Shown here piece by piece: positions 4,696 through 32,000 of a stretch of 32,000 nucleotides of DNA. Numbering within the stretch: the stretch's first letter is position 1; each line of letters begins with the position of its first letter. A program made the position numbers and the translations under genes. The notes below the pieces were generated by a model. It had not been told where the DNA came from. It was given only the letters and a program-made list of their open reading frames with translations, and did no database searches. The stretch is from NCBI RefSeq assembly GCF_000020385.1, contig NC_010814.1:3570001-3602000 (forward strand), read 5' to 3'. Source of the stretch: Trichlorobacter lovleyi SZ. Lineage in GTDB: Bacteria; Desulfobacterota; Desulfuromonadia; Geobacterales; Pseudopelobacteraceae.

Positions 4696-4705
4696 AATCA
4701 TCTCC

Positions 4706-5539: not shown

Positions 5540-5620
5540 GGCGCAGACAATAAAATTGGTGTAGAGTTTGATTGTTGTTGTACCATGCGGTACCTTTACC
5601 CGCAACTGGACTGAAAGATC

Positions 5621-15328: not shown

Positions 15329-16360
<1,032 letters not shown>

Positions 16361-16738
16361 TTATTCCGCCTTGGTTCGCAATCCTGCGGCGATATTGAAG
16401 TCTATATCCACCACAATAGTCAGCTTGTCCTTGTCAGGATCAGCCATCACTTCAAAGAGCCGTTTATCAATAAAAAGACTTAGATTGAGAATGTCTTGCT
16501 TTAAGGCTGTTGGCAGCGGGTTTTCCGGATCGGAAAGTTCGGCCTGAAAGAAACTCCAGACCTTCTGGTTGAATTTAATCGCCTCAAGCAGCTTTTCATC
16601 ACGGTCTGGCGCAGCCCAGTTTTCCTGCACCTGCTTTAACATCAGACCGGCACGGGTCAGTACCGACGCCTCAAGCTCGCGACCTGAAAGGGTCTCTTTC
16701 TGCATACTGGTGTAGCTGTTAAGTGCTGTCTGGCTCAT
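16361..16738 (-). CDS. flaF: Flagellin-synthesis regulator FlaF family protein
   Basis: 125 aa. Layout matches my recollection of Caulobacter FlaF. Elements: N-terminal Y..(Q/K).....RELEA..L, then LLEAIKFNQKVWSFF, NPLPTALKQDILNLSLFI, and C-terminal IDFNIAAGL. SD GAAGGAG lies upstream. Confidence 0.7.
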   Translation of the reverse strand: MSQTALNSYTSMQKETLSGRELEASVLTRAGLMLKQVQENWAAPDRDEKLLEAIKFNQKVWSFFQAELSDPENPLPTALKQDILNLSLFIDKRLFEVMADPDKDKLTIVVDIDFNIAAGLRTKAE

Positions 16739-16805
16739 CCGTTATGACTCCTTCTGCAATTTTGTTTCATAATAAACAATTCCAAGGGGAAATCAAGCCT
16801 GCCTT

Positions 16806-18020
16806 CTAAAACACTTCGCCTTTCCAGGCTTCATACTGATCAGCAGTCGGATCCATCGACTTACCGTTCGCATCTTTCCCCAAAAATTTAAAGACAAGGT
16901 GGCTGGGATCAAGAATGCCTCCTTCAGTTATAGGATCAAAAGTACCTCCGTTGGTATCTGCCTTTTGACGTAGCGTAAAGGTCAGGGTTGCCTGTCGGGT
17001 TGTCGGATCATAGGAGACACTTTTGGGAAGATAAGGCACCGAGGTATCCCGTGCGCTGTATAATCCATTGTTGTAGAGACCTGTGGTACCACCAGATGCC
17101 TTGCTGATCCGCCAGTTCAGCGGGTCCACCACTGAGCTGATATCCATTTCTGAATCAAAGGCAAATTTTACGGTAAAGTCTTTAGTTGCACTGGGCTCCA
17201 TAAACGCCGACGAAAGTGCCACCAGATTCACAGCCGACAAATCAAGCTTCAAAGAGCTCTTGGTACTGTTGTAGTAGGAAATCTTTGGCTGCTTGATCTC
17301 TGCAGCCAGCTCTTCAGCTGAGAGCAACGAATCTGACGTGGCAATTTCAGTCAGCGTATCAACAATTTCCTGGGCCTTGTCCTTTTCTCCAAGCCCTGCG
17401 TACGCCCTGCCGAGTTCAAGCAGAGCCGGCGAAAAATCTGCCTTGAGATCTGTGGCCTTTTGAAGTGCCTCAACTGCTTCGTCGTATTTTTCCTGTCCGT
17501 TCAGCGCCATTCCCAAGGCATAATAACCGTTGCCGTCCTTGGGCTCCAGCTTGATAACCTGCCGGAAATTGGCCTCGGCCGAAGTATAATCCCCATTTTG
17601 AGCCTGTAACTGACCCAGCATGTAATATGCCAAGGTGTTCTGATTATTCTGTTTAATGCCGTCCTTGAGAACCTTTTCAGCCTCGCTCTTCTGACCATTA
17701 TCAATATAGACACCAGCCAGAGTGGTGTAAACCGTATCCTGGGTCTTATCCACCTTCAGAGACATCTTGTAGGCATCAATCGCCTCTTTACGCTTACCCA
17801 GGCGGGCATAAGCATCGCCCTGATACGTATAAGCCTCGGTAAGATCGGGCTGCATGGCAGCGGCCTGCCTGAAAGCTGAGGCGGCCTCGCTGTACTTCTG
17901 GCTCTGCATCAGATTGATACCACTCGAAAGCAAGGTATTAGCGACATTTGTGCGAAGGTCTGCTGCAGAAGTCAGCGCAGAAAACATTTTCTGTACGTTA
18001 TCTGAAAAATCAAATGCCAT
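16806..18020 (-). CDS. TPR-repeat protein with C-terminal Ig-like/beta-sandwich domain, apparently co-transcribed with flaF
   Basis: About six TPR units span aa 30-235, for example YSEAASAFRQAAAMQPDLTEAYTYQGDAY and YDEAVEALQKATDLKADFSPALLELGRAY. The S/T/G-rich beta-type C-terminus contains DPLNWRISKASGGTTGLYN and SVSYDPTTRQATLTFTL. No signal peptide is present. Confidence 0.75.
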   Translation of the reverse strand: MAFDFSDNVQKMFSALTSAADLRTNVANTLLSSGINLMQSQKYSEAASAFRQAAAMQPDLTEAYTYQGDAYARLGKRKEAIDAYKMSLKVDKTQDTVYTTLAGVYIDNGQKSEAEKVLKDGIKQNNQNTLAYYMLGQLQAQNGDYTSAEANFRQVIKLEPKDGNGYYALGMALNGQEKYDEAVEALQKATDLKADFSPALLELGRAYAGLGEKDKAQEIVDTLTEIATSDSLLSAEELAAEIKQPKISYYNSTKSSLKLDLSAVNLVALSSAFMEPSATKDFTVKFAFDSEMDISSVVDPLNWRISKASGGTTGLYNNGLYSARDTSVPYLPKSVSYDPTTRQATLTFTLRQKADTNGGTFDPITEGGILDPSHLVFKFLGKDANGKSMDPTADQYEAWKGEVF

Positions 18021-18126
18021 GACTGCCGCCTCCTTCCTCGTATATTTTGCAACCCTACTTCTATTGCGTAATGGGAAACGTCTCGTGTATACTTCGTCTG
18101 TCCGAGCACAGCTACTCTACTTCTAC

Positions 18127-18154
18127 CTATCGGAGTATACCTCGATTTTCTTTA
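18127..18154 (-). promoter_or_regulatory. Sigma28 (FliA)-like promoter candidate for the TPR-flaF unit
   Basis: The minus strand reads TAAA (18151-18154), a 16-nt spacer, then TCCGATAG (18127-18134). The consensus is TAAA-N15-GCCGATAA, so the spacer is one nt longer and the -10 has two mismatches. It lies about 105 nt upstream of the ATG at 18020 and next to the plus-strand ATG at 18156. Confidence 0.3.
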
Positions 18155-18155
18155 C

Positions 18156-20774
18156 ATGAACAGTCCTGCACTTCACAATATTCTGGCCCAGGCCGAGCAG
18201 TTCCATACCGACGGTCGCCTTGAAGAGGCGGCCGACCTGTATCGACGTATTCTCACGATCAAGCCTGGGCTCTCCCGCACCGCCTACAACCTTGGTATAC
18301 TCCTGCTTGAGTTGCAGAATTATCACGGAGCCGGAGCTGCCTTTGAGCAGTGCCTTGCCATTGAACCACACCTGCTTGAGGCACGTCTGAACCATGCCTT
18401 TGCCCTGCAGGAACAGGGCAGAATCACTGACGCACTGACACGCTACCAAACAATAATCAGTACGACCCCCGACTGCATTGAAGCCCGCTTCAATCTGGCC
18501 TGCCTGCAACTCCTGCAAGGCAATCTGTCTGATGGTCTGAACGGTTATGAGCTGCGTTTTTCCACCAATGCTCCGGTTACGGCACGGCATGGCACCATGC
18601 CACTCTGGGACGGCAGCAGCAGACCTGGTCTGCGGCTTTTGATCCATGCCGAGCAGGGCTATGGCGACACCCTGCAGATGCTGCGTTATTTACCAATGCT
18701 GGCAAACGATGGCCTTGAAATCACGCTGGAAGTCCCTGCTCCGCTCTATCGACTCTGTTCACGGATTGACTCAATCCACTGTGTAGAGCGCGGCACCCCG
18801 TTACCGGAACTGGATTACCAACTGCCGATCATGAGCCTGCCGCGAGTTATGAAAGCGACTCTGTCCAGCATACCCGGCACAACCCCTTACCTGACGCCTG
18901 ATCCGGAACTGGTCAGTCAATGGCGGCACCGCCTGCCTGAAGCAGGCGGTCTGCGGGTCGGACTGGCCTGGGCCGGGCGGATGGACCTGCCGGTCAACCG
19001 CAAGCGCAGCTGTCCGCCGCCCCTGCTGCAACCACTTCTGGCAACCGATCGGGTCAGTTTCATCAGTCTGCAGGTTGCAGCACCGGAAGGTTTTCAGCTC
19101 AGCGATCCACGTCTGCTTGATTGCAGTGCCGATCTGACTGACTTCGACCAGACGGCAGCCCTGATTGCCACCCTTGATCTGGTCATCACCATTGACAGCG
19201 CTGTGGCGCATCTGGCCGGCGCCCTGGGTGTACCGACCTGGTTAATGCTGCCGACAGTGCCAGACTGGCGCTGGCTGCTTGAGCGCAATGACTCTCCCTG
19301 GTATCCGGAGATGCAGCTTTTCCGGCAACCGGCGCCGGGCGCCTGGGAAACGGTGATTTCAACGATAACTGAGCAGCTCTCCACTGCCTGCTCACCACGC
19401 ATCTGGTGCTATCACGACGGCCGGGATTTTCATAACAATCTGACAGCAACCCGCCCCACCCCGTTGAGCGACCGTTCTCAATGGCCCGCCCTGGGACTAC
19501 GTGAAGCCGATTCACCGGTTGCAGCTGACTGGCTGCTGTTCCCCTATTACCTTGAACATCTTGCCGAATACCACACCATTGAGGGGATGTGGCATTTCCT
19601 TGAACAGCTACCCTGGTTTAAAGAACGCCAGGAACATCATATCCTGTTCAGTGACCATGACTGTGAGGCACCCTATCACTCCAGCGCGCACTGGTTCAGG
19701 GCCAGTGTCCACCCCCGCCGCCATGATCCTGCTGTTTGCGTCATCCCCTATCAGGTTGCAGTACCGCCGGAGCAGCTCCACTTTGATCTGTCCCGCATCC
19801 GGCACCACGTCAGCTTTGCCGGCTTTCTGGGGCTGTTGCGGGAGCGTGCACCAATGCTGAACGGAGTAATTGCCGAACCGCGCCTGGTCCATATGTTTGA
19901 TCTGACCACCTCGTTCCATCTGCACCAGGCCACCGAAGTCCGGGAACAACGGCGTCAACGCTATCTTGAGATTTCCAGCGCATCCATCTGCATCCTCTGC
20001 CCACGGGGAGACGGCAGCTCTTCGATCCGTTTTTTTGAGGCCCTGGCGCTGGGCAGGATCGCGGTGGTACAGGAACCGGTTTTACTCCCCTTCAGTGACC
20101 GGATCGACTATACGCGTTTTGTGATCAGCATACCCCGGGACCGGCTGGATCAGGCCGGGACCATTATTTTCAACTGGCTTGCCGCCCTTGGTGACGAGGA
20201 ACTGCTCCAGCGCTGCCGGGAGGCACGCTTTGCCTGGGAACAACACCTTTCTCCCGCTGCACTGCCACGGGGAGTTGTCCGCCAGCTCAACCGGCAGATG
20301 CTTGCCCGCCCCTCCAAATGGCCGGAAGCGCTGCCCGGCCATGACCGTGATGGCTGGCAACAACAGATGAACCGGGCCGCCGTCCTGTTACTGAAAGGGA
20401 AACCGCTCGAAGCACGACAGCAGCTGGCTGCGGCCCTGCAGATCAACCCGCGTTCCGCCCTGCTGCAGGTCACCATGGGCGGTATTGAACAGGAGCTGGG
20501 TAACGACCGCTCTGCCGAGGCATATCTGCTGGACGCCATCCAGTATGACCATCGCTGTTATGATGCCTATCTGCTGTTGGCCGGCCTCCTGGCGCGAACC
20601 AACCGGCCGGTTGAGGCCGTGGGGCGTTTCTACCAGGCCAGTCTGATCCGCCCTGCCGAGCTGCTGCCCTACCAGCTGGCCCAGCCCCTGCTACTGCAGC
20701 TTGGTCGCCAGGATGAGGCCACCTACTGCCAGGAACAGATTACACTGCTGAGCGGTAGCGGGGCTGCAGCATGA
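18156..20774 (+). CDS. Multidomain protein: TPR - GT9-like (heptosyltransferase-fold) - exostosin/GT47-like - TPR
   Basis: Approximate domains:
- aa 1-125: TPR.
- aa 130-410: GT-B module with LLIHAEQGYGDTLQMLRY, IDSAVAHLAGALGVPTW, VPDWRW, PWYPEMQLFRQP.
- aa 455-705: exostosin-type block ICILCPRGDGSSSIRFFEALALGRIAVVQEPVLLPFSDRIDYTRFVISIP.
- aa 735-860: TPR.
The stop overlaps the next ATG (ATGA at 20771-20774). Confidence 0.75.
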   Translation: MNSPALHNILAQAEQFHTDGRLEEAADLYRRILTIKPGLSRTAYNLGILLLELQNYHGAGAAFEQCLAIEPHLLEARLNHAFALQEQGRITDALTRYQTIISTTPDCIEARFNLACLQLLQGNLSDGLNGYELRFSTNAPVTARHGTMPLWDGSSRPGLRLLIHAEQGYGDTLQMLRYLPMLANDGLEITLEVPAPLYRLCSRIDSIHCVERGTPLPELDYQLPIMSLPRVMKATLSSIPGTTPYLTPDPELVSQWRHRLPEAGGLRVGLAWAGRMDLPVNRKRSCPPPLLQPLLATDRVSFISLQVAAPEGFQLSDPRLLDCSADLTDFDQTAALIATLDLVITIDSAVAHLAGALGVPTWLMLPTVPDWRWLLERNDSPWYPEMQLFRQPAPGAWETVISTITEQLSTACSPRIWCYHDGRDFHNNLTATRPTPLSDRSQWPALGLREADSPVAADWLLFPYYLEHLAEYHTIEGMWHFLEQLPWFKERQEHHILFSDHDCEAPYHSSAHWFRASVHPRRHDPAVCVIPYQVAVPPEQLHFDLSRIRHHVSFAGFLGLLRERAPMLNGVIAEPRLVHMFDLTTSFHLHQATEVREQRRQRYLEISSASICILCPRGDGSSSIRFFEALALGRIAVVQEPVLLPFSDRIDYTRFVISIPRDRLDQAGTIIFNWLAALGDEELLQRCREARFAWEQHLSPAALPRGVVRQLNRQMLARPSKWPEALPGHDRDGWQQQMNRAAVLLLKGKPLEARQQLAAALQINPRSALLQVTMGGIEQELGNDRSAEAYLLDAIQYDHRCYDAYLLLAGLLARTNRPVEAVGRFYQASLIRPAELLPYQLAQPLLLQLGRQDEATYCQEQITLLSGSGAAA

Positions 20775-23700
20775 ACCGCCACCAGCGTCCTAAAGGTTCA
20801 GTCGCTGTCTGGTATCGTCTCGGCACCCGGCAACTCCGGCAGAATCGCCCGGATGACGCGGCTGCGAGCTTTCGTCAGGCGCTGGCACAGGATCCGATGC
20901 TGGCGGCAGCCTGGCACAACCTGGCCCACGCCTGTCAGCAGATGCGCCAGTATGATCACGCCCTGGTCAGCTACCGCCGGGCCTTGCAGTACTGTCCCAA
21001 TGATGCCTGCAGTCTCAACAACCTGGGCGTACTGCTCCGGGAGCTGGGACGCCTGGATGAATCACTGCAGGTTCTGGGACAGCTTGTCAGCCTCTACCCT
21101 GATGACGGCGACGGCCACTGGAACCTGGCGCTCTCCCTGTTGATGACCCGACGCTACCCTGAAGGCTGGCAGGAGTATGAATGGCGCTTCCGCCGGACTC
21201 TCCCGGTCCGGGTCCATGATCCCGGCAGCCCCCGCTGGCAGGGTGAAGCGTTGGAGGGGAAAACCATCCTGCTCTGCTGTGAACAGGCCTATGGCGACAG
21301 CATTCAATTTGTACGCTTTGCCGCCGGCCTTGCCGATTGGGGCGCCACGGTGCTGCTGCACTGTCCGGACCAGTCCCTGGCGCAGCTTCTTGCCGGTGCG
21401 CCGGGGGTCAGCCGGACCATGACCCCGGATGAACCGTTGCCGCCGCATGACTGCTGGTCTCCTCTGCTCAGCCTGCCGCTTTATCTGCAGACCAGTCAGG
21501 AAAGTATTCCGGCCTGCCCCTACCTGTTTGCCGGGAAAACCGCCAGCCAACCGGTACTATCCGGCACCGGCCTCAAGGTCGGTCTGGTCTGGTCCGGCCG
21601 CAGCACAGACCCGCAGCGGGCCTGCCCCGTGCAACTGCTGGCACCATTGGCGCGCTTTTCAAGGCAGGTCACGTTTTTTTCGCTCCAGCTGAACAGCACC
21701 CGCCATGACCTTGATCTGTTGCAGCACCTCTTGGGAATCATCGATCTGGCGCCGCACCTGAGCGATTTTCAGGCCACTGCAGGGATCATGCAGCAGCTTG
21801 ACCTGATCATCAGCATTGACAGTGCCCCGGCCCACCTGGCCGGTGCACTGGGACGGGAGACCTGGCTGCTGCTGCATCAGGCCCCTGACTGGCGCTGGGG
21901 CCTCCAGCACGCAGATTCAGACTGGTACCCCACCATGCGGCTCTTCCGCCAGCCGGCAGGTGAGTCGTGGCAACCGGTGATTGATCAAGTGGTCGAAGCC
22001 CTGGAGCAGCGGCTCAACAGCAGCGCCGCCAGCATTCCGGTTGCGGACACCGGCGACCTGCTGACACTGGGGGACCGCTTGCGTGAGCAGGAACAGTGGA
22101 GCGCAGCGCACCATCTCTACCGGCTGGCTGCCTGGCTGGCACCGAACAACTACCGTGCAGCGCTCTGTGCAGGCGGATGCCTGATGTTTCTCAATCGTCC
22201 TGACGAGGCAGCCACCTGGTTCCGGCAGGCCATTGCATTAAACCCGGAAGTGGCTGATGCCCATATCAATCTGGGCATGGCCTTGCTGAGCAGCGGCAAC
22301 CTGCAGGAAGGCTGGCGCGAGTTTGAATGGCGCAGCTGTGCCATCACCGCGCAGCTGCCCCCTATTCCCGCCCTGCCGGTCATACCGCCCAACAGCCGTC
22401 TTGACGGTACGACGGTCCTTATCCATGCCGAACAGGGATTGGGCGACCTGCTGCAGTTCGCCCGCTACCTGCCGCTGCTGGCAACAACCGGGGCGCAGAT
22501 TATCGTCAGTGTCCCGGCCGTGATGCAACGCCTGATAGCCGGTCTGACCGGCGTCAGCCGGGCCGTCTCCCATGGCGAACTGCTGCCTGAGGCTGACTAT
22601 CAGCTCCCGCTGCTTTCCCTGCCGGAATGTCTGTCAGAGCTGGTGCCCGCCATCCCTGTCCAGGTACCGTACCTGTTGCCTGATCCAGCCCTGCAAGCGG
22701 CATGGCAGTCACAGCTTGCCGACAACGGCGTACTCAAGGTCGGCCTGATCTGGCGCGGCAGCAATCTGGGGAAAAGCGGTTACAGCAGGGCTCTGACCAC
22801 AGAACTGCTGCGTCCCCTGACAGAGGTGGAACAGACCACCTGCTACAGCCTGCAACTTGGCGCCAGCAGCGAAGAGCTGTCCCAACTGCCCGGCATCATT
22901 GATCTGGCACCGCAGATTACTGATTTTGCCGATACGGCGGCCATCATGGTCAATCTTGATCTGGTGATCAGTGTCGATACCTCCACCGCCCACCTGGCCG
23001 GTGCCCTGGGCTGCCGCTGCTGGGTACCGCTCCTGTTTGCGCCTGACTGGCGCTGGTATCCGTTGCATGACCAAGGCAGCCGCTGGTATCCCTCCCTGAC
23101 CACTTTCCGCCAGCATATACCCGGCCGGTGGCAGCCGGTTATGGCTGAACTTGCCGCTGCCCTGCAGGGTGAGGCGTTATTGTACCAAGGGCACCAACTT
23201 GGCAGGACGGGCAGAAGGGAAGAAGCAATTGAAAAATTCCGGGCAGCGGCTGTACTCCCAGACAGAAACGGGCCCGCCTTTTTGAATCTCGGCATCTACC
23301 TGCGGGCCGATGGTAAGCTACTACAGGCAAAAGAGGCCTTACTGCAGGCGACCCAGGCAGATCCGGGCTACCCGGAGGCCTGGCAAAACCTGGGACTGAC
23401 CCATCAGGGACTGGGAGAACTGCCTGAGGCCTATACCTGCCTGAAACGGGCACTGACCCTCAGACCTGACTACAGCACTGCCCGCTGGAACCTGGGGCTA
23501 CTGCAACTATTGTTGGGGGAATACCGGCCTGGATTTGAAAATTTCGAAGCGCGTTTCACCAAACTTGGAGCCGTGGCCCGGCTGCACAACACCATCCCGG
23601 CCTGGGACGGCACTTCATATCCCGGCAAAACAATCCTGATTCATGCGGAACAGGGCTACGGTGACACTCTTCAGTTCGTACGCTTCATTCCGATGGTCAC

Positions 23701-24409
23701 TGAAAGGGTGGGGAAAGTGATCCTTGAGGTGCAGGATAACGCCTTGCGTGAACTCTGCCAAAGCGTACCAGGGGTTACAACAACCATTGTACGAGGTGAG
23801 ACGCTACCGGCAATTGACTGCCAGGCCCCGCTGCTATCGCTCCCCCGGCTGCTGAAAATCTCATTAGAGACGCTGCCGCACAAGATTCCGTACCTGACTG
23901 CCGATAAACAAAAAACAGGGTACTGGGAGAGCAGACTCCCCCATGATGGCCGACGCAGGATCGGCATCTGCTGGAAAGGACGGCCAACACCCGACCCGCA
24001 GCGCTCAATCCCGTTTGATGAGTTGCGACCTCTTTTTGAGCTGGCAGGAACCTGCTGGATCTCGCTGCAGGCGGAGCAGGACCAGACCGCTCGCCTCCCG
24101 GAGGTGATGATTGACCTTAGCAATGAGATTAACGATTTCTCCGATACCGCAGCGATTATGGGCTATCTGGACCTGGTGATCAGCATTGACTCGGCGGTAG
24201 CTCATCTGGCCGGTGCCCTGGGGGCACCCGGCATCGTGCTGCTCCCCTTTGCACCTGACTGGCGCTGGGCCCTGGATCAACCCCACAGCCCCTGGTATCC
24301 GGGATTGCAACTGTTCCGGCAACCGGCCCCGGGAGCATGGAAACCGGTAATTACGGCCCTGTGCAACGCCCTGACACAACCATCTCCTGCCGAGGCATCA
24401 CGTGGATAA
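20771..24409 (+). CDS. Protein with three tandem TPR + GT9-like glycosyltransferase modules (1212 aa)
   Basis: Motifs recur three times:
- EQAYGDSIQFVRF, EQGLGDLLQFARY and EQGYGDTLQFVRF at aa 171, 554, 960.
- IDSAPAHLAGALG, VDTSTAHLAGALG and IDSAVAHLAGALG at aa 349, 735, 1139.
- APDWRW at aa 371, 757, 1161.
- WYP....FRQ at aa 385, 772, 1175.
Each module is preceded by 3-4 TPR-like repeats. Confidence 0.8.
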   Translation: MNRHQRPKGSVAVWYRLGTRQLRQNRPDDAAASFRQALAQDPMLAAAWHNLAHACQQMRQYDHALVSYRRALQYCPNDACSLNNLGVLLRELGRLDESLQVLGQLVSLYPDDGDGHWNLALSLLMTRRYPEGWQEYEWRFRRTLPVRVHDPGSPRWQGEALEGKTILLCCEQAYGDSIQFVRFAAGLADWGATVLLHCPDQSLAQLLAGAPGVSRTMTPDEPLPPHDCWSPLLSLPLYLQTSQESIPACPYLFAGKTASQPVLSGTGLKVGLVWSGRSTDPQRACPVQLLAPLARFSRQVTFFSLQLNSTRHDLDLLQHLLGIIDLAPHLSDFQATAGIMQQLDLIISIDSAPAHLAGALGRETWLLLHQAPDWRWGLQHADSDWYPTMRLFRQPAGESWQPVIDQVVEALEQRLNSSAASIPVADTGDLLTLGDRLREQEQWSAAHHLYRLAAWLAPNNYRAALCAGGCLMFLNRPDEAATWFRQAIALNPEVADAHINLGMALLSSGNLQEGWREFEWRSCAITAQLPPIPALPVIPPNSRLDGTTVLIHAEQGLGDLLQFARYLPLLATTGAQIIVSVPAVMQRLIAGLTGVSRAVSHGELLPEADYQLPLLSLPECLSELVPAIPVQVPYLLPDPALQAAWQSQLADNGVLKVGLIWRGSNLGKSGYSRALTTELLRPLTEVEQTTCYSLQLGASSEELSQLPGIIDLAPQITDFADTAAIMVNLDLVISVDTSTAHLAGALGCRCWVPLLFAPDWRWYPLHDQGSRWYPSLTTFRQHIPGRWQPVMAELAAALQGEALLYQGHQLGRTGRREEAIEKFRAAAVLPDRNGPAFLNLGIYLRADGKLLQAKEALLQATQADPGYPEAWQNLGLTHQGLGELPEAYTCLKRALTLRPDYSTARWNLGLLQLLLGEYRPGFENFEARFTKLGAVARLHNTIPAWDGTSYPGKTILIHAEQGYGDTLQFVRFIPMVTERVGKVILEVQDNALRELCQSVPGVTTTIVRGETLPAIDCQAPLLSLPRLLKISLETLPHKIPYLTADKQKTGYWESRLPHDGRRRIGICWKGRPTPDPQRSIPFDELRPLFELAGTCWISLQAEQDQTARLPEVMIDLSNEINDFSDTAAIMGYLDLVISIDSAVAHLAGALGAPGIVLLPFAPDWRWALDQPHSPWYPGLQLFRQPAPGAWKPVITALCNALTQPSPAEASRG

Positions 24410-25259
24410 GCATCCTGACTGGGAAACGTACTGGAGTACGACGGAATTCAGTCCGCTCACCGGTACAAATTTTTTTACTCAGATATTCAATGTCTTTGTC
24501 CCGGAAGTACAGGGGCAGTTGACAGCAATGGAAATCGGCTGTTTTCCCGGACGTTTCATTGAGTACATCGGTCAAAAAGGTTATGTCATCAGCGGCATTG
24601 ATACCTGTCCAAAGGTGCTTGGCCTCAACCAGCTCTTTCGCGAGAGGGGATTGCGGGTAGGTGCTTTTTCCAACGTCGATCTCGATGATTTTTTCGGCCG
24701 CTTCGGCCTGGTTCTTTCGGTTGGTTTTATTGAGCATTTTGCCAATTGGCCCAGGATCATCATGAAGCATATCGAATGTACCAAACCCGGTGGAAGAATC
24801 ATTATCAATTGCCCGAACTTTGCGACCCCACTGCAGAGAGCGATGCATCAGACGGTAGACAAGGGGAATAGTGATCACCATGTCCTTTCCGCAATGTATC
24901 CGGCATTGTGGGGGGCATTTCTGAGACTGGTCGGGATGGACCTGCTGTATTGTGATTATATCGGTCCGTTTCAATTCTGGACCGAAACATGCCTGCATCC
25001 CGACAGCAATGAGTACAAACTGCAGCAAGCATTTCAGTCTGCCGGCAACTGGTTGCATAAAATCAAGGGAGAATTTGAGGCAAAGGAGTCAGGCTATTGC
25101 CTGGCAGTTGCAGACAGGCCCCGGGATTGGGTAGCCGACAATGACAGGATTGAAGCGCTCTGTTCTGAATTTCAGACTCTTGCAACGCTGCTTGACCTGA
25201 AAGACCAGCTGCTTGCCGATCAGCTGCGACACGCGTTTAAAACGGCAATACCGATCTAG
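24402..25259 (+). CDS. Class I SAM-dependent methyltransferase
   Basis: Motif I-like AMEIGCFPGRFIEYIGQKGYVISGID, later GGRIIINCPNF. GTG start at 24402 has GAGG 6 nt upstream and overlaps the previous gene by 8 nt. The 235-aa antisense ORF was rejected. Confidence 0.7.
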   Translation: MDKHPDWETYWSTTEFSPLTGTNFFTQIFNVFVPEVQGQLTAMEIGCFPGRFIEYIGQKGYVISGIDTCPKVLGLNQLFRERGLRVGAFSNVDLDDFFGRFGLVLSVGFIEHFANWPRIIMKHIECTKPGGRIIINCPNFATPLQRAMHQTVDKGNSDHHVLSAMYPALWGAFLRLVGMDLLYCDYIGPFQFWTETCLHPDSNEYKLQQAFQSAGNWLHKIKGEFEAKESGYCLAVADRPRDWVADNDRIEALCSEFQTLATLLDLKDQLLADQLRHAFKTAIPI

Positions 25260-25324
25260 GCCAAGCCCCACAGATACAGGACAGAGTACCACTCTCATTT
25301 TTCTTCACTCATGACAGGGGCCAT

Positions 25325-26617
25325 ATGAAGGTAGTTCACATAGCCTTATCAAATGACGGTGGAGCCGGTATTGCCGCCTACCGGTTGCATACAGCCTTGA
25401 GAAAAGCAGGGGTGGCGTCGCTCATGCTGGTGCTGTACAGCAAAAATGATGATCCTACGGTCAACATCATCAACACCACGACCCGGCCCTGCCTGACGAC
25501 CGGCCCCGGCATTTCCCCCCATTTCTATACCCATGAACAGCACACCCGTTGCCTGCTGGAACAGCACCCCCAGCGCAACCAGAAACGGGATATGTTTACC
25601 GGTGCGACCTCCGAAGTTGTACTGGAAGATATTGCAGCAATTCACGACGCCGACATCATCAACCTGCACTGGGTCGCAGGGGTGGTGGACTATTCCCGCC
25701 TCAGCCATATCTTCAAGGGCAAACAAACGGTACTGACGCTCCATGCCATGAACGACTTTACCGGTGGCTGCCACAACGCCTATGACTGCCGCAACTATAC
25801 GACCGAGTGTTGTCATTGCCCACAATTAGGTCCACACCCGTTTGACCATGCCAGACATATTTTTTATCAAAAACTCTATGGGATGCAGGAGCTTGAGATA
25901 ACAGCGGTCAGCCCCAGCAGATGGCTGGCCGGCTGCGCCGCCCAGAGCAGAATCCTGTCCGGCAGACGCGTACTGTGCATCCCCAACGGCATTCCGAGCG
26001 AGACCTTCAGACCACTGGAAAGTTCTGCTGCCCGTGACTATTTCGGCATTGCCCCTGATCGTTTCATCATCCTGTTTGGCGCCTTTGATGCTACCAATGA
26101 ACGCAAGGGAGGGGCATTACTTGCTGCTGCACTCGGGCAACTGCCTGTCACTGTCCTGGATAGAATCACCCTGGTTGGATTCGGCGCCTCATCAGAGACA
26201 CTGGTAACGTCTTTCCCCTGCGACGTCAAAGGCTTGGGACCAGTCTGCAATGAAGACAACCTGGCGCTGATCTATTCCATGGCAGACCTGTTTGCCCTGC
26301 CATCCATGGCGGATAATCTACCCAACTCCATTCTGGAATCACTGGCCTGCGGCACGCCGGTACTGGCATTCAGGGTTGGCGGCATACCGGAGATTGTCGA
26401 ACACAGGCGAAACGGGTATCTTGCCACACCGTTCAATACCGGTGAGCTGGCTGCAGGGATCGTCTGGTGCATGGAAAACCACAAACAACTCGCAGGCGAA
26501 CCGTGTACCGCCACCATCCGATATGGCTATACTGACCGTATCCAGGCCCTGCGCTATATCAGTCTCTACCAGAGCCTGCTTGACGGTTTGTCAACCAGGC
26601 AGAGCAGAATCCGATGA
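25325..26617 (+). CDS. Glycosyltransferase family 4 (GT-B, group 1)
   Basis: N-terminus MKVVHIALSNDGGAGIAAYRL. C-domain ERKGGALL and LFALPSMADNLPNSILESLACGTPVLAFRVGGIPEIVEHRRNGYLA. Confidence 0.85.
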   Translation: MKVVHIALSNDGGAGIAAYRLHTALRKAGVASLMLVLYSKNDDPTVNIINTTTRPCLTTGPGISPHFYTHEQHTRCLLEQHPQRNQKRDMFTGATSEVVLEDIAAIHDADIINLHWVAGVVDYSRLSHIFKGKQTVLTLHAMNDFTGGCHNAYDCRNYTTECCHCPQLGPHPFDHARHIFYQKLYGMQELEITAVSPSRWLAGCAAQSRILSGRRVLCIPNGIPSETFRPLESSAARDYFGIAPDRFIILFGAFDATNERKGGALLAAALGQLPVTVLDRITLVGFGASSETLVTSFPCDVKGLGPVCNEDNLALIYSMADLFALPSMADNLPNSILESLACGTPVLAFRVGGIPEIVEHRRNGYLATPFNTGELAAGIVWCMENHKQLAGEPCTATIRYGYTDRIQALRYISLYQSLLDGLSTRQSRIR

Positions 26618-27249
26618 CCAAACCGGCCTTTGCACAGACAAAGCTGTTGCAGTTCCTGGAAAAGATTGCAGTAGAGGTCTATCCTGAAGCACCGTCAGCA
26701 CTCCATACCCAGATTACCGCCAAGGCGATAGAGCATCTGTTTGCAGCCTACACAGTCGCCGGGCAGGCCCTGGTGCTTGATGTCGGTTGCGGGCAGGGGG
26801 TGGCTTTACAGCATTTTGTCGAACGGGGCTGTCGACCGGTGGGGATCACCCTCAATACAACCGATCTGGAGGAGTGCCGCAGGCAAGGATACACCGTGGC
26901 GCAGATGGACCAGTCCTTTCTTGATTTTGAAGACAACACCTTTGATCTTGTCTGGGCCCGGCATATTGTGGAGCACAGCATTTTTCCGTACTACACGCTG
27001 ACGGAGTTTGCCCGGATACTCAAGCCGGGCGGCCTGCTCTACCTTGAAGTACCCGGGGCGGAGACCTCCTGCAAACATGAACTGAACCGCAATCACTACA
27101 GTATCCTCAGCCACACCATGTGGTGCTCGCTGCTGGAGCGAAGCGGGTTCACTATCGCCGAAGAGCAAACCTATTTCCTGAAAAATGAGCAGGGACCTGA
27201 TGAATACTGGGCCTTTTTCGGGGTAACATCTGGAGGCACTCATGCCTGA
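26614..27249 (+). CDS. Class I SAM-dependent methyltransferase (Methyltransf_11-like)
   Basis: VLDVGCGQGVALQHFVERGCRPVGITL (motif I), FDLVWARHIVEHS and LKPGGLLYLEVP. ATGA overlap with the upstream gene. Confidence 0.8.
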   Translation: MTKPAFAQTKLLQFLEKIAVEVYPEAPSALHTQITAKAIEHLFAAYTVAGQALVLDVGCGQGVALQHFVERGCRPVGITLNTTDLEECRRQGYTVAQMDQSFLDFEDNTFDLVWARHIVEHSIFPYYTLTEFARILKPGGLLYLEVPGAETSCKHELNRNHYSILSHTMWCSLLERSGFTIAEEQTYFLKNEQGPDEYWAFFGVTSGGTHA

Positions 27250-28027
27250 AACGCATATCAGCACGACAGTAGCACCGTCTCTGTCAACAGACTCCTTTGT
27301 CTCCATCGGCTCACAACAGCCGATCTCAGCCATAGAAGAGGCGATGCTGGCAGCAGTCGCCGCCTCTCACGGACTGGTCACGGTCTCCGAGGCCCTGTCG
27401 TTACACCGTCTCTGTCAGATGCTCCCTGCCGGGGCGCGCATCCTTGAAATCGGTTCCTATCTTGGCGCCTCCACCACCGCCATAGGCCATGCTATCCTGG
27501 GAAGAGAGATCGATCTGTACTGCCTTGATTGTTGGCACGACTATGTCGCCCATGGTTTCATAGACCATCCCTGGGCCAAGTCGGCACATTCCGGCAACGA
27601 GGTCCTGCTCAAATTTCTCGAAACCACGGCGTTTATACACAGTCAGCTCCGGATACTGAAAGGTACCACCGAGCAGTTCCGGACCCTGCTACCGGCCTCG
27701 TTTTTTGATCTGATCTTTATTGATGCCGGCCATGATTATGATAGCGTCCTGAATGACCTGCTGATCAGCATGCGAGCGCTGGCCCCCGGCGGATTGCTGC
27801 TGGGGCATGACTACCACAGTGATGGCCATGGCGTTGTTGCCGCGGTCAACCAGGTGATCTATGAATCCCGCAACATCACGGTTAAAGGGATTATCCCGGG
27901 CACCAGCATCTGGTACGCCGTGATCAACAACCCGCTCCAGGAGTTGGTCAACTTGAACGCATCAGGTCTGCCACGACCTACTGATCGCACCTCCGTACCG
28001 GGTTCCCCGGCAAGCCGCTCGCTATGA
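27242..28027 (+). CDS. Class I SAM-dependent methyltransferase (Methyltransf_24 / family-3 O-MT-like)
   Basis: ILEIGSYLGASTTAIGHAI, DLIFIDAGHDYDSVLNDL and LAPGGLLLGHDY. Overlaps the upstream gene by 8 nt. Confidence 0.75.
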   Translation: MPETHISTTVAPSLSTDSFVSIGSQQPISAIEEAMLAAVAASHGLVTVSEALSLHRLCQMLPAGARILEIGSYLGASTTAIGHAILGREIDLYCLDCWHDYVAHGFIDHPWAKSAHSGNEVLLKFLETTAFIHSQLRILKGTTEQFRTLLPASFFDLIFIDAGHDYDSVLNDLLISMRALAPGGLLLGHDYHSDGHGVVAAVNQVIYESRNITVKGIIPGTSIWYAVINNPLQELVNLNASGLPRPTDRTSVPGSPASRSL

Positions 28028-29643
28028 AGATACTCTTAGTCATCCCCCTGTCAAACTATCCTCAAATGCACCCTGCGTTTTTGTCCAACACCGACTTCCC
28101 GGTCGGTTTTGCCTACATCGCTGCTGCTCTGAAACAGGCAGGGCATAAGGTCTTTGGCCTGAATCCCAACAATGACACCCGCTACGAATCTGCCCAAGAG
28201 CTCCTCAAGGCACGGCTGATCCAGTCTTTGATCGAAACCAACCCCCATATGATCGGCCTGGGCGGGCTTTCCACAGACATCCATTTTATTGCTGACGCCA
28301 TTCAGATCATCCGGTCGGTACGGCCGCACATCCCGATTGTGTGCGGCGGCGGGATCATCACTAATGATGCAGAGTACGTGTTCAAGCGGCTGCGTCCCGA
28401 CTTCTGTATTATTGGTGATGCTGAGCGTGCACTCGTACAACTTGTTGAGATGCTTGAGCAGGGCAGTGCCCTTTTCGATACGATTCCGAACCTCGGCTAC
28501 TGGCACGAGGGGCACGCCCGATTCAGCCCCCGTCTACGCAACGACGAGCCCGTCGATTCCTATCCCTTCCCCGATTACGAGCCCTTTGACATCAACAGCA
28601 TGCTCGGCGAGCACGCGCTGGTCACCCGCTATCAATACCGCTACACCCGCTCTCATCCGGTTCCAATGACCCTGGTGGCGGCTCGCGGTTGTCCGTTCAG
28701 ATGTTCGTTTTGCGTCAACAATGATGACAAGCGCTACCGTTTCCGGAGTATCGGAAACATTATGGACGAAATCAGGGTGCTGTATGAAAAATATCACTTT
28801 AATATCCTGATCATCCTGGATGAGCTGTTTGCAGTACACAGGGATCGGCTGCAGCAGTTTGCAACCGCCCTGCTTGAGGGGAGAGCACGCTATGGCTGGG
28901 ATTTTGACTGGAGCTTCCAGACCCACGCCAGTGCCAATATTGATCAGGCAACGCTCCAGCTTGCCAAGCAGGCCGGCTGTTTCTTTTTCAGCTATGGCAT
29001 TGAAAGCGCCAGCCCGACAGTCCTTGCCAGCATGAACAAGCGGACTCAGCCGGAACAGATTGAAGCAGCCCTGAAGCTCGCGGAGCAGGTACAGGTAGGG
29101 TTCGGAGGAAACTTTATCTTTGGTGACCCTGCCGAAACCTTCCAGACCGCCTTGGAATCGCTGGAATTTTACAAGAAGCACTGTCTTTATGCGCATGTCA
29201 ATGTCGGGTCGGTGCATCCCTATCCCGGCAGCAGGCTTTTTGACTACTGTCTCGAGCAGGGAATCATAGCAGACAAGTCTAAGTACTATGACAACATAGA
29301 CCAGGTTTCATATAACATGACCCGCTTGCCCCAGCAGGAGTGGGTACGGCTGATGACCGAGATTATGCAGTTCACCAGCCAATGCGGCGTTCCGGTGGTT
29401 GAAACACAAGCCGCACGCCAAGACCCCGGTGCAACGGAGCGTGAACGCCACGGCAACGGCAACAGATCACCGTGGGAACTTATATTCAACTGCCCGCACT
29501 GTAGCCACGGCATCTATACCCGCATGTTGCTGGTCAATGAAGAGGTACTGCAGGCCTATGCCAGCTTTGTAACCGGTTGCCCTGTATGTCACAAACGCTT
29601 TATCGTCAAGGCAGCGGCTAGTGAGCGGCCTGACCTGTACTAA
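28024..29643 (+). CDS. B12-binding-domain radical SAM enzyme (class B, probable methyltransferase) with C-terminal Cys4 zinc-ribbon-like tail
   Basis: N-terminal Rossmann/B12-like region MKILLVIP...IGLGGLST...IPIVCGGGIIT. Radical SAM cluster motif ARGCPFRCSFCVN (CxxxCxxC). C-terminus CPHCSHG...(36 aa)...CPVCHKRF. ATGA overlap with the upstream gene. Confidence 0.85.
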   Translation: MKILLVIPLSNYPQMHPAFLSNTDFPVGFAYIAAALKQAGHKVFGLNPNNDTRYESAQELLKARLIQSLIETNPHMIGLGGLSTDIHFIADAIQIIRSVRPHIPIVCGGGIITNDAEYVFKRLRPDFCIIGDAERALVQLVEMLEQGSALFDTIPNLGYWHEGHARFSPRLRNDEPVDSYPFPDYEPFDINSMLGEHALVTRYQYRYTRSHPVPMTLVAARGCPFRCSFCVNNDDKRYRFRSIGNIMDEIRVLYEKYHFNILIILDELFAVHRDRLQQFATALLEGRARYGWDFDWSFQTHASANIDQATLQLAKQAGCFFFSYGIESASPTVLASMNKRTQPEQIEAALKLAEQVQVGFGGNFIFGDPAETFQTALESLEFYKKHCLYAHVNVGSVHPYPGSRLFDYCLEQGIIADKSKYYDNIDQVSYNMTRLPQQEWVRLMTEIMQFTSQCGVPVVETQAARQDPGATERERHGNGNRSPWELIFNCPHCSHGIYTRMLLVNEEVLQAYASFVTGCPVCHKRFIVKAAASERPDLY

Positions 29644-29709
29644 CCAAGTACAGGCAGAACGCAATATGCTGACGACGCAGACACAACGTTTTTGAAAGGC
29701 AGATTACCG

Positions 29710-31086
29710 ATGGTAAGCCAGGAAAAGATAATTTCGTATGTAGAGAGCCTTATCTATTACATTGCCAAACCCGCCATGAGCGAACAGATTGCAGCATCTT
29801 TCGAGATCGACAGCCTGCCGCAAGCCGATACAGGAGCACAACTGCTAATCCTGGGGGCACTGCTGACAACAGGCCGGTTTGACGAGTTTTCCCAGCTGGC
29901 CGGCAAGCTTGATTTCAGCGCACACACCGCAGAAGAAAGGTCACAGCTTGCCCACTGCATCTTTACGACCTTCTCCGAAACCCTGCTGGCCAACTACGCC
30001 ACCTCATCCCGACATGCGGCGGCAATTCTGGAGCTCCTGACCGCAATCAGCCCGGAGGCCATACTGGCACACAGATCCGGCTGCGAATCACCAGCAGGGC
30101 ATGCACTGATCGAACTTGACTACGCCCGACAGATCAGCCCCTCCGTAAGCGGTGCCGTTTTTTCCAGGGAAAACTCCTTTGGACCAGGCTCACGAAAGAG
30201 CGAGTTTGGATATCGCATCCTGTCATCACTGGCCTCCCAGGGGTGGAACGTTGCGCTCTTGCCCTTAAAAGAGCTTTTCAGTTATACCACTCCCTGTCGG
30301 CAGGATTTTGTGCTGGTGGATGTGGGGCTGTTCTGGAAGCTGCCGCCGCTTGAGCAGCTCCATGAGCTGCTTGCGTACCTGAAACGTCATTTTCGCAAGA
30401 TCATCATCTTTGAACCGGACCCGTGGACCGGGTTCTATGATGAACTGTTGCGGTCAATTGCTGATCGTGTAGATTATATCTGGGGGTTCACCCCGGATTG
30501 GGAATTGACACAAGATCCGTGCTACAGGGGTAAAAGCATCATGTTCCCCAATGTCGGCGGATTCGAACAGCTGGCGCCGCCGCACCGGCATGAGCTTGAC
30601 TGGAACAGTTGCAGCTTCAACTTTACCGGCTCGGTACAGGGCTACAACCTGAACAGGGTCTACTGGATCCTTGAGGCGATCCGACGTAACCTGCCACTCG
30701 AGGTCCAGATTACGAATCCAGGTGTTGATGACGGCCTGGACTGTGAAAGTTCACTGAAGCTGTACATCCGGAAGCTGCTCTCCTCCCATGCCTCACTTAA
30801 CCTGGCAACGCGCAAGGATGGCTCACGGATGCTGACCGGCAGGGCGGTTGAGGTCATCAGCCTGAACCGGTTGCTGATTCAGGAATGGTGCCCCGCACTG
30901 CGACGGTATTATGTTGAAGGAGAGCACTTTCTGGAGTTCAAAGAGATTGAGGGACTTGCCACCAGCATCCACTTCCTGGAATCACACCCCAGGGTTGCAC
31001 AGACAATCTGCTCCCAGGGACATCAGTTCTATCTGGAACGGTATTCGTGCCGGAAAATGGTAGAACATATCCAGACCCTGCTCTGA
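29710..31086 (+). CDS. Divergent CgeB-like / Glyco_trans_1_2-type glycosyltransferase
   Basis: The C-terminal third resembles the CgeB family: FNFTGSVQGYNLNRV and LTGRAVEVISLNRLLIQEW...YVEGEHFLEFKEIEGL...QGHQFYLERYS. The N-terminal 200 aa are not recognised. Start set at the ATG at 29710; the listed start at 29692 is TTG. Confidence 0.5.
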   Translation: MVSQEKIISYVESLIYYIAKPAMSEQIAASFEIDSLPQADTGAQLLILGALLTTGRFDEFSQLAGKLDFSAHTAEERSQLAHCIFTTFSETLLANYATSSRHAAAILELLTAISPEAILAHRSGCESPAGHALIELDYARQISPSVSGAVFSRENSFGPGSRKSEFGYRILSSLASQGWNVALLPLKELFSYTTPCRQDFVLVDVGLFWKLPPLEQLHELLAYLKRHFRKIIIFEPDPWTGFYDELLRSIADRVDYIWGFTPDWELTQDPCYRGKSIMFPNVGGFEQLAPPHRHELDWNSCSFNFTGSVQGYNLNRVYWILEAIRRNLPLEVQITNPGVDDGLDCESSLKLYIRKLLSSHASLNLATRKDGSRMLTGRAVEVISLNRLLIQEWCPALRRYYVEGEHFLEFKEIEGLATSIHFLESHPRVAQTICSQGHQFYLERYSCRKMVEHIQTLL

Positions 31087-31097
31087 TATGGGGCAAA

Positions 31098-32000
31098 ATG
31101 CAATACCGTTACCTAGTCGCTCATGAGGTTCAAGTGCAGAAAGAAAACAACCAATTACATATCTGGCTGGCCTACGTAAACTACCCGATCACTACGGCCG
31201 TGTACCTGAAAAGGGCCTTGCAGCAGATGGGACATCAGGTCACCACCATTGGCCCACGCCTGCCGGAAAAGGCGATTGCCCTGTGGGGGCTTCAGAACAT
31301 GAAACTCCCGTTGGATCCTCAGGACATTGACACCTCCTTTACCCCTGATATGGCTGAAATATGGGAGTCGACACCGCCTGTAGAGCGCCCGGACCTGTAT
31401 CTCTGGGTGGAGTCGGTCAACGGACATAATCCGCAGAATCTGCAGCAGATTACCTGTCCCAAGGTCTGCTATCTGATCGATACCCATTACCATCTGGACC
31501 ATGCCATAGAGATTGCGCAGCACTTTGATTACGCCTTTATTGCCCAGTTGGTGGACCTGGAGGAATTCAGGACGCTACACCCGCAGGTTCACTGGCTGCC
31601 ACTGGCCTGCGACCCTGAAATCCATGGCAGGCAGACGGTCGCAAAGGAGTATGAGGTAAGCTTTGTCGGCGGCATGAATGAGCGCAGGGCAGCCCTGCTG
31701 GATCACCTGGCAAGCCGCTTCAATGTTCATCACGAGCGTTCCTTCTGGACCGATATGGCCCGCACCTTTTCCGCCACCCGGATCGTGCTGAATGATGCCA
31801 GTTATGACGACCTGAACATGCGCTTCTTTGAGGCGCTTGCCGCAGGCTCGCTGCTGCTCTCAAACCCGACCAGCGGCAGCGGACAGGACATCCTGTTTCA
31901 CGATGGCGCCGATTATGCCTGCCATCATGATCATGACCTGCTTGAGATAGTACAACGTTATCTGGACAACGAGCCACTGCGTGAACGGATTGCCGAGCAG
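31098..32000 (+). CDS. CgeB-family glycosyltransferase (DUF3880 + Glyco_trans_1_2-like), 3'-truncated by window edge; absent from the ORF track
   Basis: The frame is open from the ATG at 31098 (MQYRYLVAHEVQVQKENNQLHIWLAYVNYPITTAVYLKRAL...) to nt 32000. Typical CgeB blocks: YLWVES, CYLIDTHYHLDHAIEIAQHFDYAFIAQ, VSFVGGMNERRAALLDHL, ATRIVLNDASYDDLNMRFFEALAAGSLLLS. The two minus-strand ORFs listed here are shadows. Confidence 0.7.
   Translation, partial: MQYRYLVAHEVQVQKENNQLHIWLAYVNYPITTAVYLKRALQQMGHQVTTIGPRLPEKAIALWGLQNMKLPLDPQDIDTSFTPDMAEIWESTPPVERPDLYLWVESVNGHNPQNLQQITCPKVCYLIDTHYHLDHAIEIAQHFDYAFIAQLVDLEEFRTLHPQVHWLPLACDPEIHGRQTVAKEYEVSFVGGMNERRAALLDHLASRFNVHHERSFWTDMARTFSATRIVLNDASYDDLNMRFFEALAAGSLLLSNPTSGSGQDILFHDGADYACHHDHDLLEIVQRYLDNEPLRERIAEQ

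Follow-up and report, generated by a model that had tools for sequence, protein, structure and literature searches.

TPR-flanked GT9-like and exostosin-like domains in a candidate flagellin glycosyltransferase from a Trichlorobacter lovleyi glycosylation island

Glycosylation of flagellins takes place in the cytoplasm, before they are exported, and controls filament assembly, motility, and immune and phage recognition. To our knowledge, only two classes of flagellin glycosyltransferase (GT), Maf and FlmG, have been reconstituted, and exostosin-type domains have been studied almost only in Golgi polymerases of animals and plants. In FlmG, a tetratricopeptide repeat (TPR) array at the N terminus binds flagellin and a GT-B domain sets donor specificity (PMC7591256; 10.1101/2022.03.25.485807), and in Maf-1 of Shewanella a C-terminal TPR confers flagellin specificity (10.1101/2023.12.03.569772). 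Here, we describe an 872-aa protein of Trichlorobacter (Geobacter) lovleyi SZ in which a GT9-like and an exostosin/GT47-like domain are enclosed by TPR arrays. Its gene lies in a 32,000-nucleotide stretch of the genome (NC_010814.1, positions 3,570,001 to 3,602,000), which we refer to as the window and whose coordinates are used henceforth. The TPR-GT9-GT47-TPR architecture was not described in the literature that we searched. By analogy with the known systems, we consider it probable, though well short of certain, that this protein is a soluble, cytoplasmic, bifunctional protein glycosyltransferase of a flagellin glycosylation island, a reading that rests on genomic context and homology.

The gene and its parts are as follows.

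18156..20774, + strand: open reading frame (ORF) TPR - GT9-like - GT47-like - TPR, 872 aa, with an ATG start, uninterrupted, as translated
18165..18545, + strand: N-terminal TPR array, aa 4-130, seven helices (Pfam TPR families, AlphaFold2); proposed flagellin-binding arm by analogy with FlmG (PMC7591256)
18558..19391, + strand: GT9-like GT-B domain, aa 135-412 (PF01075, Foldseek, motifs)
19392..20306, + strand: exostosin/GT47-like GT-B domain, aa 413-717 (PF03016, PDB sequence matches, Foldseek)
20352..20750, + strand: C-terminal TPR array, aa 733-865, eight helices (Pfam TPR_16 at aa 781-830, AlphaFold2)
20771..20774, + strand: ATGA stop/start overlap with the next gene (GCAGCATGAACC), a candidate for translational coupling

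An earlier note on this DNA had described one 872-aa ORF with two GT-type domains and TPRs at both ends, and the ORF list, the translation, Pfam and AlphaFold2 all bear this out. The encoded protein is ACD97059.1 (WP_012471383.1; UniProt B3EBM0). Its label is 'tetratricopeptide repeat protein' at NCBI and 'Exostosin family protein' in UniRef, so that both the sequence of ACD97059.1 and the exostosin label are already in the databases, but not its biology. As Glov_3294 corresponds to WP_012471324.1 (supplement of PMC11972089), accession arithmetic from this anchor places the gene at about Glov_3353. The exact protein is present on 19 contigs, and its cluster has 15 members, mostly of 872 aa. 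Neither a signal peptide nor a transmembrane segment was found, the highest 19-residue hydropathy (1.71) lying in the Rossmann core; therefore, the protein should act in the cytoplasm.

AlphaFold2 modeled the full protein with a pLDDT of 87.4 and a pTM of 0.85 from an alignment of 23 homologues. In this model, helical repeats at residues 4-130 and 733-865 enclose two GT-B folds at about 135-412 and 413-717, and Pfam TPR families were matched at aa ~10-130 and ~735-830. The two GT domains were modeled alone with similar results (pLDDT 86.4, pTM 0.87), and both are predicted with confidence to adopt a GT-B fold. The second resembles the GT47 domain of EXTL3, which has been described as a 'minimal GT-B' (PMC9178029), in that each lobe has about five strands. 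The two domains had been called unrelated; they do fall into separate sequence families, but the GT-B fold is found in both. When the whole model was used in Foldseek, OGT and SPY came out on top because the TPR plus GT-B layout is common to them, and the profile of the whole protein against the Protein Data Bank (PDB) was swamped by designed TPR proteins and the TPRs of OGT. The PDB profile and Foldseek searches were therefore repeated with domain-only queries. NCBIfam returned TPR matches and sub-threshold heptosyltransferase matches, and nothing else.

The second GT domain is solidly placed in the exostosin/PF03016 family by hidden Markov model, fold and motif. The Exostosin_GT47 model (PF03016) matched aa 452-670 over model positions 52-289 of 293 with 45.1 bits, above the gathering score of 33.4 (E=1e-11), and it also matched homologues P0122-P0134. 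By sequence, the domain matched the PDB chains of EXTL3 (1.7e-9), EXT1 (2e-7), EXT2 (2.5e-6) and the chlorovirus protein A075L (0.04). In Foldseek, with the two-GT model as query, 14 of the 15 top-ranked matches were EXTL3, EXT1 or EXT2 (E 7e-10 to 9e-8), with superpositions of 325-361 aligned columns at a root-mean-square deviation (rmsd) of 4.9-7.9. The earlier note had assigned an exostosin-type domain to nt 19518-20270, which correspond to aa 455-705; significant sequence and fold matches were found there, and the signature on which that assignment was made, CPRGDGSSSIRFFEALALGRIAVV...LLPFSDRIDYTRFVISIP, is located at aa 615-659.

Residue conservation was analyzed across 23 sequences. In the GT47-like domain, H495, HD501-502, RAS515-517, FH587-588, HQ590-591 and CP615-616 are invariant, as are G618, G620, S623, R625, E628, GR633-634, P645, R649 and Y652. 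HMMER aligned PRGRRLGSFRFLE of EXT1 gap-free with P616-R-G-D-G-S-S-S-I-R625-F-F-E628, which pairs EXT1 E349 with E628, R346 with R625 and S344 with S623, all three invariant in the homologues; the position of the ribose-binding E453 of EXTL3 likewise aligns with E628. Glu349 of EXT1 is the conserved ribose-binding acid, situated where helix C-alpha-4 begins, and its mutation abolishes the GlcAT-II (glucuronic acid transfer) activity (PMC9178029). As the alignment to EXT1 runs without gaps, the pocket-occluding insertion that precedes a helix in EXTL3 is probably absent here.

The first GT domain can be called only GT9-like, a designation that rests on fold and one motif, the Pfam match being marginal. 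Glyco_transf_9 (PF01075) exceeded its cut-off (25.2 against 22 bits, E=1.2e-5), but the match is confined to aa 328-361, that is, 34 of the 247 model positions. Foldseek with the two-GT model retrieved 1psw, 3tov, 2gt1, 2h1h and 6dfe (WaaF, WaaC and 3tov) at E 2e-6 to 9e-6, and these GT9 structures gave the best single-domain fits after the GT47 matches (TMt 0.45-0.52, rmsd 5.7-8.7). EQGYGD166-171, R284, D329, TAAL333-336, LDLVITID340-347, AHL351-353 and DWRW370-373 are invariant in this domain, and its motifs are common to all three modules of the neighboring gene at 20771..24409. The invariant G170-D171 comes directly after the first strand (residues 160-164 in the model); D171 may correspond to the catalytic Asp of GT9 enzymes (WaaC D13).

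The fusion is conserved. In 22 full-length homologues from Geobacteraceae and metagenomes (841-913 aa, 46-89% identity), the architecture is kept end-to-end, is not split and contains no internal stop. A frameshift-fused pseudogene, which the earlier note had named as a possible undoing of its proposal, was ruled out by this full-length architecture. That the ORF is an artefact of any kind, whether such a pseudogene or a chance ORF, has a negligible probability: the sole hint is the existence of split or stand-alone GT47-like versions in distant relatives, and against it stand the recurrence of the exact protein on many contigs, the intact homologues and an AlphaFold2 model that is confident across both domains.

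The GT47-like domain alone retrieved only one fragment from a word-indexed protein database, and an exhaustive representative search was used instead. With clusters defined at 50% identity, it revealed 1450 that are related to the domain at E<=1e-3, of which 41 reached E<=1e-30. Exostosin domains had been regarded as sporadic in bacteria, which is an understatement given this number, many of the clusters being of bacterial gene size. The module occurs in stand-alone proteins of 304-408 aa (P0142, P0134), in a GT47-TPR protein of 445 aa (P0123), in the order TPR-GT47-TPR-GT9 (P0125, P0126), and in giants of 1477-2156 aa (P0014, P0122). Furthermore, each of the three modules of the neighboring gene is 35-41% identical to aa 9-409 of the 872-aa protein, which comprise the N-terminal TPR and the GT9-like domain. 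These comparisons indicate autonomous TPR and GT-B modules that have been duplicated and shuffled, rather than a one-off chimera or a frameshift artefact.

The stop codon of the 872-aa ORF overlaps the ATG of this triple-module gene, as had been noticed before, and the overlap is retained in relatives, measuring 4 nt in loci L001/L002, L003 and L005 and 8 nt in L004. From the overlap only, we infer that the two proteins may be made in fixed stoichiometry.

The 872-aa gene opens a ~34-kb glycosylation island that extends from FlaF (16.4 kb) to FlbT (window-equivalent ~50.9 kb). The remaining features of the island within the window are listed here.

16361..16738, - strand: FlaF, flagellin secretion chaperone family, left island border (PF07309, E=6e-34)
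16806..18020, - strand: all-TPR protein, 404 aa, divergently transcribed, conserved partner of the locus
18128..18154, - strand: sigma-28 (FliA)-type promoter-like site, TAAAG-N16-TCCGATAG, facing the TPR and FlaF genes
20771..24409, + strand: 1212-aa protein with three TPR + GT9-like modules, found on the same contigs as the 872-aa homologues
24402..31086, + strand: methyltransferase, GT4-type GT, two methyltransferases, B12-binding radical SAM enzyme, GT
31134..32000, + strand: first part of the gene for a 1049-aa GT + methyltransferase fusion; further island genes follow past the end of the window

FlaF, which functions as a flagellin secretion chaperone (PMC7591256), is encoded 1.4 kb upstream of the 872-aa ORF and downstream of the divergent all-TPR gene. 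In the window and its extensions, the island encodes methyltransferases, GT4-type and 'Glyco_trans_1_2' GTs fused to methyltransferases, and the B12-radical-SAM enzyme. Locus L010, which overlaps window positions 30191-32000 at 100% identity, continues with an FkbM methyltransferase (ACD97070), an epimerase, two GTs, two TPR-GT41 genes, two flagellins, a hypothetical gene and FlbT. The flagellins to FlbT occupy window-equivalent positions ~48.3-50.9 kb and lie ~17 genes beyond the 872-aa gene; accession anchors, with which L010 agrees, place the flagellins at about Glov_3370 and Glov_3371 and FlbT at Glov_3373. Both flagellins are 275 aa long, with 24-26% Ser+Thr. When the termini of E. coli FliC were used in tblastn, neither the window nor loci L001-L004 yielded a flagellin. 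T. lovleyi expresses its flagellar genes (PMC11972089).

Some features of the island are of interest in their own right. The short flagellins, FlbT and FlaF (L010 18124-19914) resemble the alphaproteobacterial (Caulobacter-type) control system, here in Geobacterales. Directly upstream of the flagellins, the two TPR-GT41 (OGT/SPINDLY-like) genes (L010 14125-17915, - strand; window-equivalent ~44.3-48.1 kb) are alternative candidates for the initiating flagellin glycosyltransferase; the same pair follows FlaF in Citrifermentans bemidjiense (L006 20085-24353). The B12-binding radical SAM enzyme lies at window positions 28024-29643 (+ strand), and in the near-identical L010 (6111-9977) a B12/radical-SAM domain is fused to a GT-methyltransferase gene with a 1288-aa product; together these genes suggest that the glycan is methylated in an unusual way, perhaps at carbon, and that domains are still being shuffled.

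The gene content of the island bears on the kind of glycan that may be made. No lipid-carrier, export or membrane-protein Pfam family was recorded for the genes of the ~34-kb island, and a flippase, polymerase, ABC exporter or polyprenyl-phosphate transferase was likewise absent from the recorded families, no search having been aimed at these functions. Nor were NeuB, PseB/C-type or CMP-transferase families recorded in the island; such genes could lie elsewhere in the genome. A single NAD-dependent epimerase/dehydratase was recorded. As no nonulosonic-acid synthesis family was recorded, the donors are probably not nonulosonic acids.

A polysaccharide or glycolipid substrate, such as lipopolysaccharide (LPS) core, capsule or exopolysaccharide, would make the flagellar neighbors coincidental, and we regard it as quite improbable. 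LPS heptosyltransferases are the classical GT9 enzymes, and glycan elongation is the typical role of GT47 enzymes. In addition, some cluster fragments carry the JGI label 'ADP-heptose:LPS heptosyltransferase', the island is rich in GTs and methyltransferases as O-antigen loci are, and a TPR-containing capsule polymerase (8qoy) was among the whole-model fold matches. However, the protein is soluble with two TPR arrays, FlaF lies on one side of the island and the flagellins and FlbT on the other, a sigma-28-like promoter is present, and homologues are found inside flagellar clusters in two further lineages. A consistently flagellar context, together with the lack of a recorded export or lipid-carrier family, therefore makes a role in polysaccharide or LPS synthesis unlikely.

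The loci of relatives were compared with that of strain SZ. The order FlaF, TPR, then GT genes on the opposite strand was found in L003, L004, L005 and L008, and a TPR gene of the 404-aa type occupies the same position in L003, L004, L005 and L007. In L007, a TPR-GT47-GT9 protein is encoded after flgM-flgN-flgK-flgL-flbD-motAB, and in C. bemidjiense TPR-GT9 giants lie between motAB and flagellin-FlbT-FlaF. Flagellar genes were linked in all six contexts examined, and pilin or cytochrome-filament genes in none. Another protein acceptor (a pilin, a cytochrome filament subunit, FlaF or the TPR partners) is accordingly given a very low probability, even though TPRs are generic protein-binding modules, the flagellin genes are not close by and Geobacterales produce several other surface filaments.

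A second genome named T. lovleyi (CP058409, L005) revealed how variable the locus is. Among the flanking genes and FlaF, protein identity to SZ is 99.5% for NrfD, 98% for Fer4, 93% for the thioredoxin-reductase-like protein (TrxR-like) and 91% for FlaF; past FlaF, it falls to 72% for the TPR partner, 63% for the 872-aa protein and 65% for its triple-module neighbor, and the downstream gene sets differ. This sharp drop at the island border fits the pattern expected of a diversifying surface-glycan locus; the locus is a hypervariable glycosylation island.

The intergenic region between the 872-aa gene and the divergent TPR gene measures 135 bp (18021-18155), and the -35 element of the sigma-28-like site overlaps the ATG of the 872-aa ORF. 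The pattern TAAA-N14-17-CCGATA has its sole match in the window at 18128-18154, where 0.04 matches were expected, and L003 and L005 have the site at the corresponding position. A near-consensus sigma-28 promoter, TAAAGTTT-N11-GCCGATAC, was found in the distant L007. The strict pattern was not found upstream of the L010 flagellin genes or in L006, where only looser CCGA(A/T)-type -10 elements were present; therefore, the promoter evidence covers the TPR-FlaF operon only. In the same intergenic region (18021-18155), CTACTTCT occurs twice, as does a GTATAC palindrome (GTGTATACT, GAGTATACC); these elements are kept in the window, L003 and L005 and could be regulator binding sites.

Several points weigh against a bifunctional flagellin glycosyltransferase. 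R340 of EXT1 is a hot-spot residue required for glucuronic acid (GlcA) transfer. It is not kept in the GT47-like domain, where it aligns with D619 at a variable position (D, E or A), and the donor is therefore probably not UDP-GlcA. Judged from the alignment, this loss would speak against that donor and not against membership in the wider family, and the donor chemistry appears to differ from that of the exostosins. EXTL3, the closest solved relative, is itself thought to be catalytically inactive in its GT47 domain (PMC9178029). With a 34-residue Pfam match, the GT9 assignment is weak at the sequence level: NCBIfam heptosyltransferase models (WaaC, WaaF, WaaQ) scored 11.8-15.1 bits against cut-offs of 170-569, and a profile of the domain found no PDB chain at E<=10, for which reason the label stays 'GT9-like'. 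The flagellin genes are ~27 kb from the 872-aa gene and do not adjoin it, and four other TPR proteins in the island may be the true flagellin-binding or initiating enzymes. Finally, the literature searched held no account of flagellin glycosylation in Geobacterales beyond the remark in a genome paper that glycosylation enzymes are encoded among the flagellar genes (PMC3543383).

Some of these points would also be explained if flagellin is the substrate and one GT domain has degenerated to a pseudo-glycosyltransferase, with a role in scaffolding or in binding of the acceptor or a sugar, like the GT47 domain of EXTL3. We consider this unlikely, although it deserves more weight than any other alternative. 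EXTL3 is the best match in both sequence and fold, R340 is not conserved, and the GT9-like domain is too divergent for any solved GT9 to be reached by sequence profile. By contrast, polar residues at the expected donor-binding positions are invariant in both domains in 23 sequences down to 46% identity. The insertion of EXTL3 is missing where the pocket stretch aligns with that of EXT1, the GT9-like motifs are retained in all four paralogous modules of the operon, and the GT47-like module also exists as a protein of its own, which argues for an autonomous function.

We therefore return to the bifunctional flagellin glycosyltransferase, for which a three-step scheme of docking, transfer and extension is proposed on the basis of the TPR roles in FlmG and Maf-1. 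Flagellin is the most likely acceptor by this analogy and by the genomic setting. The N-terminal TPR arm, the C-terminal arm or both would hold newly made flagellin (Glov_3370, Glov_3371) before FlaF passes it to the export apparatus. The two inverting GT-B domains, GT9-like and GT47-like, would then each transfer a different nucleotide-activated sugar, so that two steps in making the flagellin O-glycan, in succession or in parallel, would take place on one scaffold. The coupled neighbor, the two TPR-GT41 proteins and the GT/methyltransferase fusions of the island would add, extend and methylate the glycan. In this scheme, we infer the acceptor, the TPRs as the binding element, the activity of both domains, the step assigned to each and the donors. 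The earlier idea of a two-activity enzyme tethered by TPRs agrees with the FlmG and Maf-1 logic and with the conservation of donor-pocket residues in both domains. A more elaborate version, in which the two coupled proteins, with five TPR-scaffolded GT-B modules between them (four of the GT9-like and one of the exostosin-like type), form a cytoplasmic 'assembly line' that builds a defined, later methylated oligosaccharide directly on flagellin, is put forward tentatively and is more doubtful than the general scheme.

Additional observations were made in the window. A strong intrinsic-terminator-like hairpin with a 12-bp stem and a T-run (16306-16333, - strand) lies just after FlaF and marks the end of the TPR-FlaF transcription unit, before the thioredoxin-reductase-like gene. 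The GC fraction is 0.49-0.50 at 16001-18000 (FlaF, TPR) and 0.62-0.63 at 20001-23000, the 3' part of the 872-aa gene and the triple-module gene, compared with ~0.56 for the window. At 3403-6238 (- strand), a methyl-accepting chemotaxis protein (HAMP + MCPsignal) is followed by a 510-aa CheR whose methyltransferase domains begin only at ~aa 265, after a long uncharacterized N-terminal extension. Two ORFs have no significant Pfam family: one of 253 aa in a low-GC (0.50) stretch (961-1722, - strand) and one of 274 aa (6412-7236, + strand) with a weak NlpC/P60 hint (E=0.0015).

If the assembly-line version is true, it would add a third mechanistic class of flagellin glycosyltransferases to Maf and FlmG, and the 872-aa protein would be the first exostosin-type (GT47-like) enzyme shown in bacterial protein glycosylation. 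The eukaryotic bi-domain exostosins would then plausibly have their prokaryotic counterpart, or even their root, in bacterial bi-domain enzymes of this kind. On the general proposal, a TPR-scaffolded enzyme with tandem GT9-like and exostosin-like domains, conserved in flagellar loci of Geobacterales, would likewise be a further class and would offer a tractable bacterial setting for exostosin-type domains. TPR and GT-B modules would be building blocks that are shuffled to diversify a surface glycan, and they could possibly serve as modular parts for protein glyco-engineering.

Among the systems known so far, FlmG (Caulobacter crescentus, Brevundimonas subvibrioides) is close in design, as compared by architecture and published description rather than by sequence alignment. 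Both proteins are soluble, with an N-terminal TPR followed by a GT-B domain of ~280-290 aa, and both belong to genomes with FlaF/FlbT flagellin control and short flagellins of ~275 aa. The island is linked to FlaF, a sigma-28-like promoter, two flagellins and FlbT, and its relatives lie in flagellar clusters, as befits the FlmG class. Primer Bs_flmG_del_3 of B. subvibrioides encodes ..SCALDLVV.., which resembles the LDLVIT motif of the GT9-like domain; scans of the genome contigs with this primer and with FlmG_int_N of C. crescentus gave no matches. Unlike FlmG, however, the 872-aa protein has a second GT-B domain, from another family than the first, and a second TPR array at its C terminus, is coupled to a partner with three more TPR-GT modules, and is encoded in an island for which no pseudaminic or legionaminic acid synthesis family is among the recorded Pfam families. 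It also comes from Geobacterales, whereas FlmG is reported to be confined to Caulobacterales.

The GT47-like domain shares the minimal GT-B fold with EXT1, EXT2, EXTL3 and the chlorovirus xylosyltransferase A075L (GT114), which are its best sequence and structure matches, and it has the PxG...S.RF.E motif with the ribose-binding Glu (E349 = E628) and the Arg (R346 = R625). As in the exostosins, a GT47 domain is paired with a second GT domain; its partner here is a GT9-like GT-B, where exostosins have a GT64 GT-A. Exostosins are type II Golgi membrane proteins, whereas the 872-aa protein is predicted to be soluble and cytoplasmic, and its acceptor is presumably a protein or protein-linked glycan instead of heparan sulfate or a plant wall polymer. 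The structurally aligned residues are only ~14-16% identical, and EXT1 R340 is not conserved.

With the GT9 enzymes WaaC and WaaF, the first domain shares a compact GT-B fold (TMt 0.45-0.52), the C-lobe donor motif ..LDLVItiDs..aHLAgAlG.. and a Gly-Asp motif after the first strand, which in GT9 enzymes contains the catalytic Asp. It differs in lacking profile similarity outside ~34 residues, in falling far below the NCBIfam cut-offs, and in being fused to TPRs without a lipid A or Kdo context.

In design, the 872-aa protein is like Maf-1, GmaR of Listeria and the TPR-GT41 (OGT/SPY-like) enzymes, in which fusion of a GT with a TPR array gives a cytoplasmic, protein-directed glycosyltransferase. 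The catalytic domains of Maf and of GmaR are GT-A-type, however, GT41 is another GT-B family, and none of these proteins has two catalytic domains. Set beside these systems, the 872-aa protein is a well-supported candidate both for a further class of flagellin glycosyltransferase and for a bacterial function of exostosin-like domains, built on the TPR-plus-GT principle that is already known from them and not on a new one.

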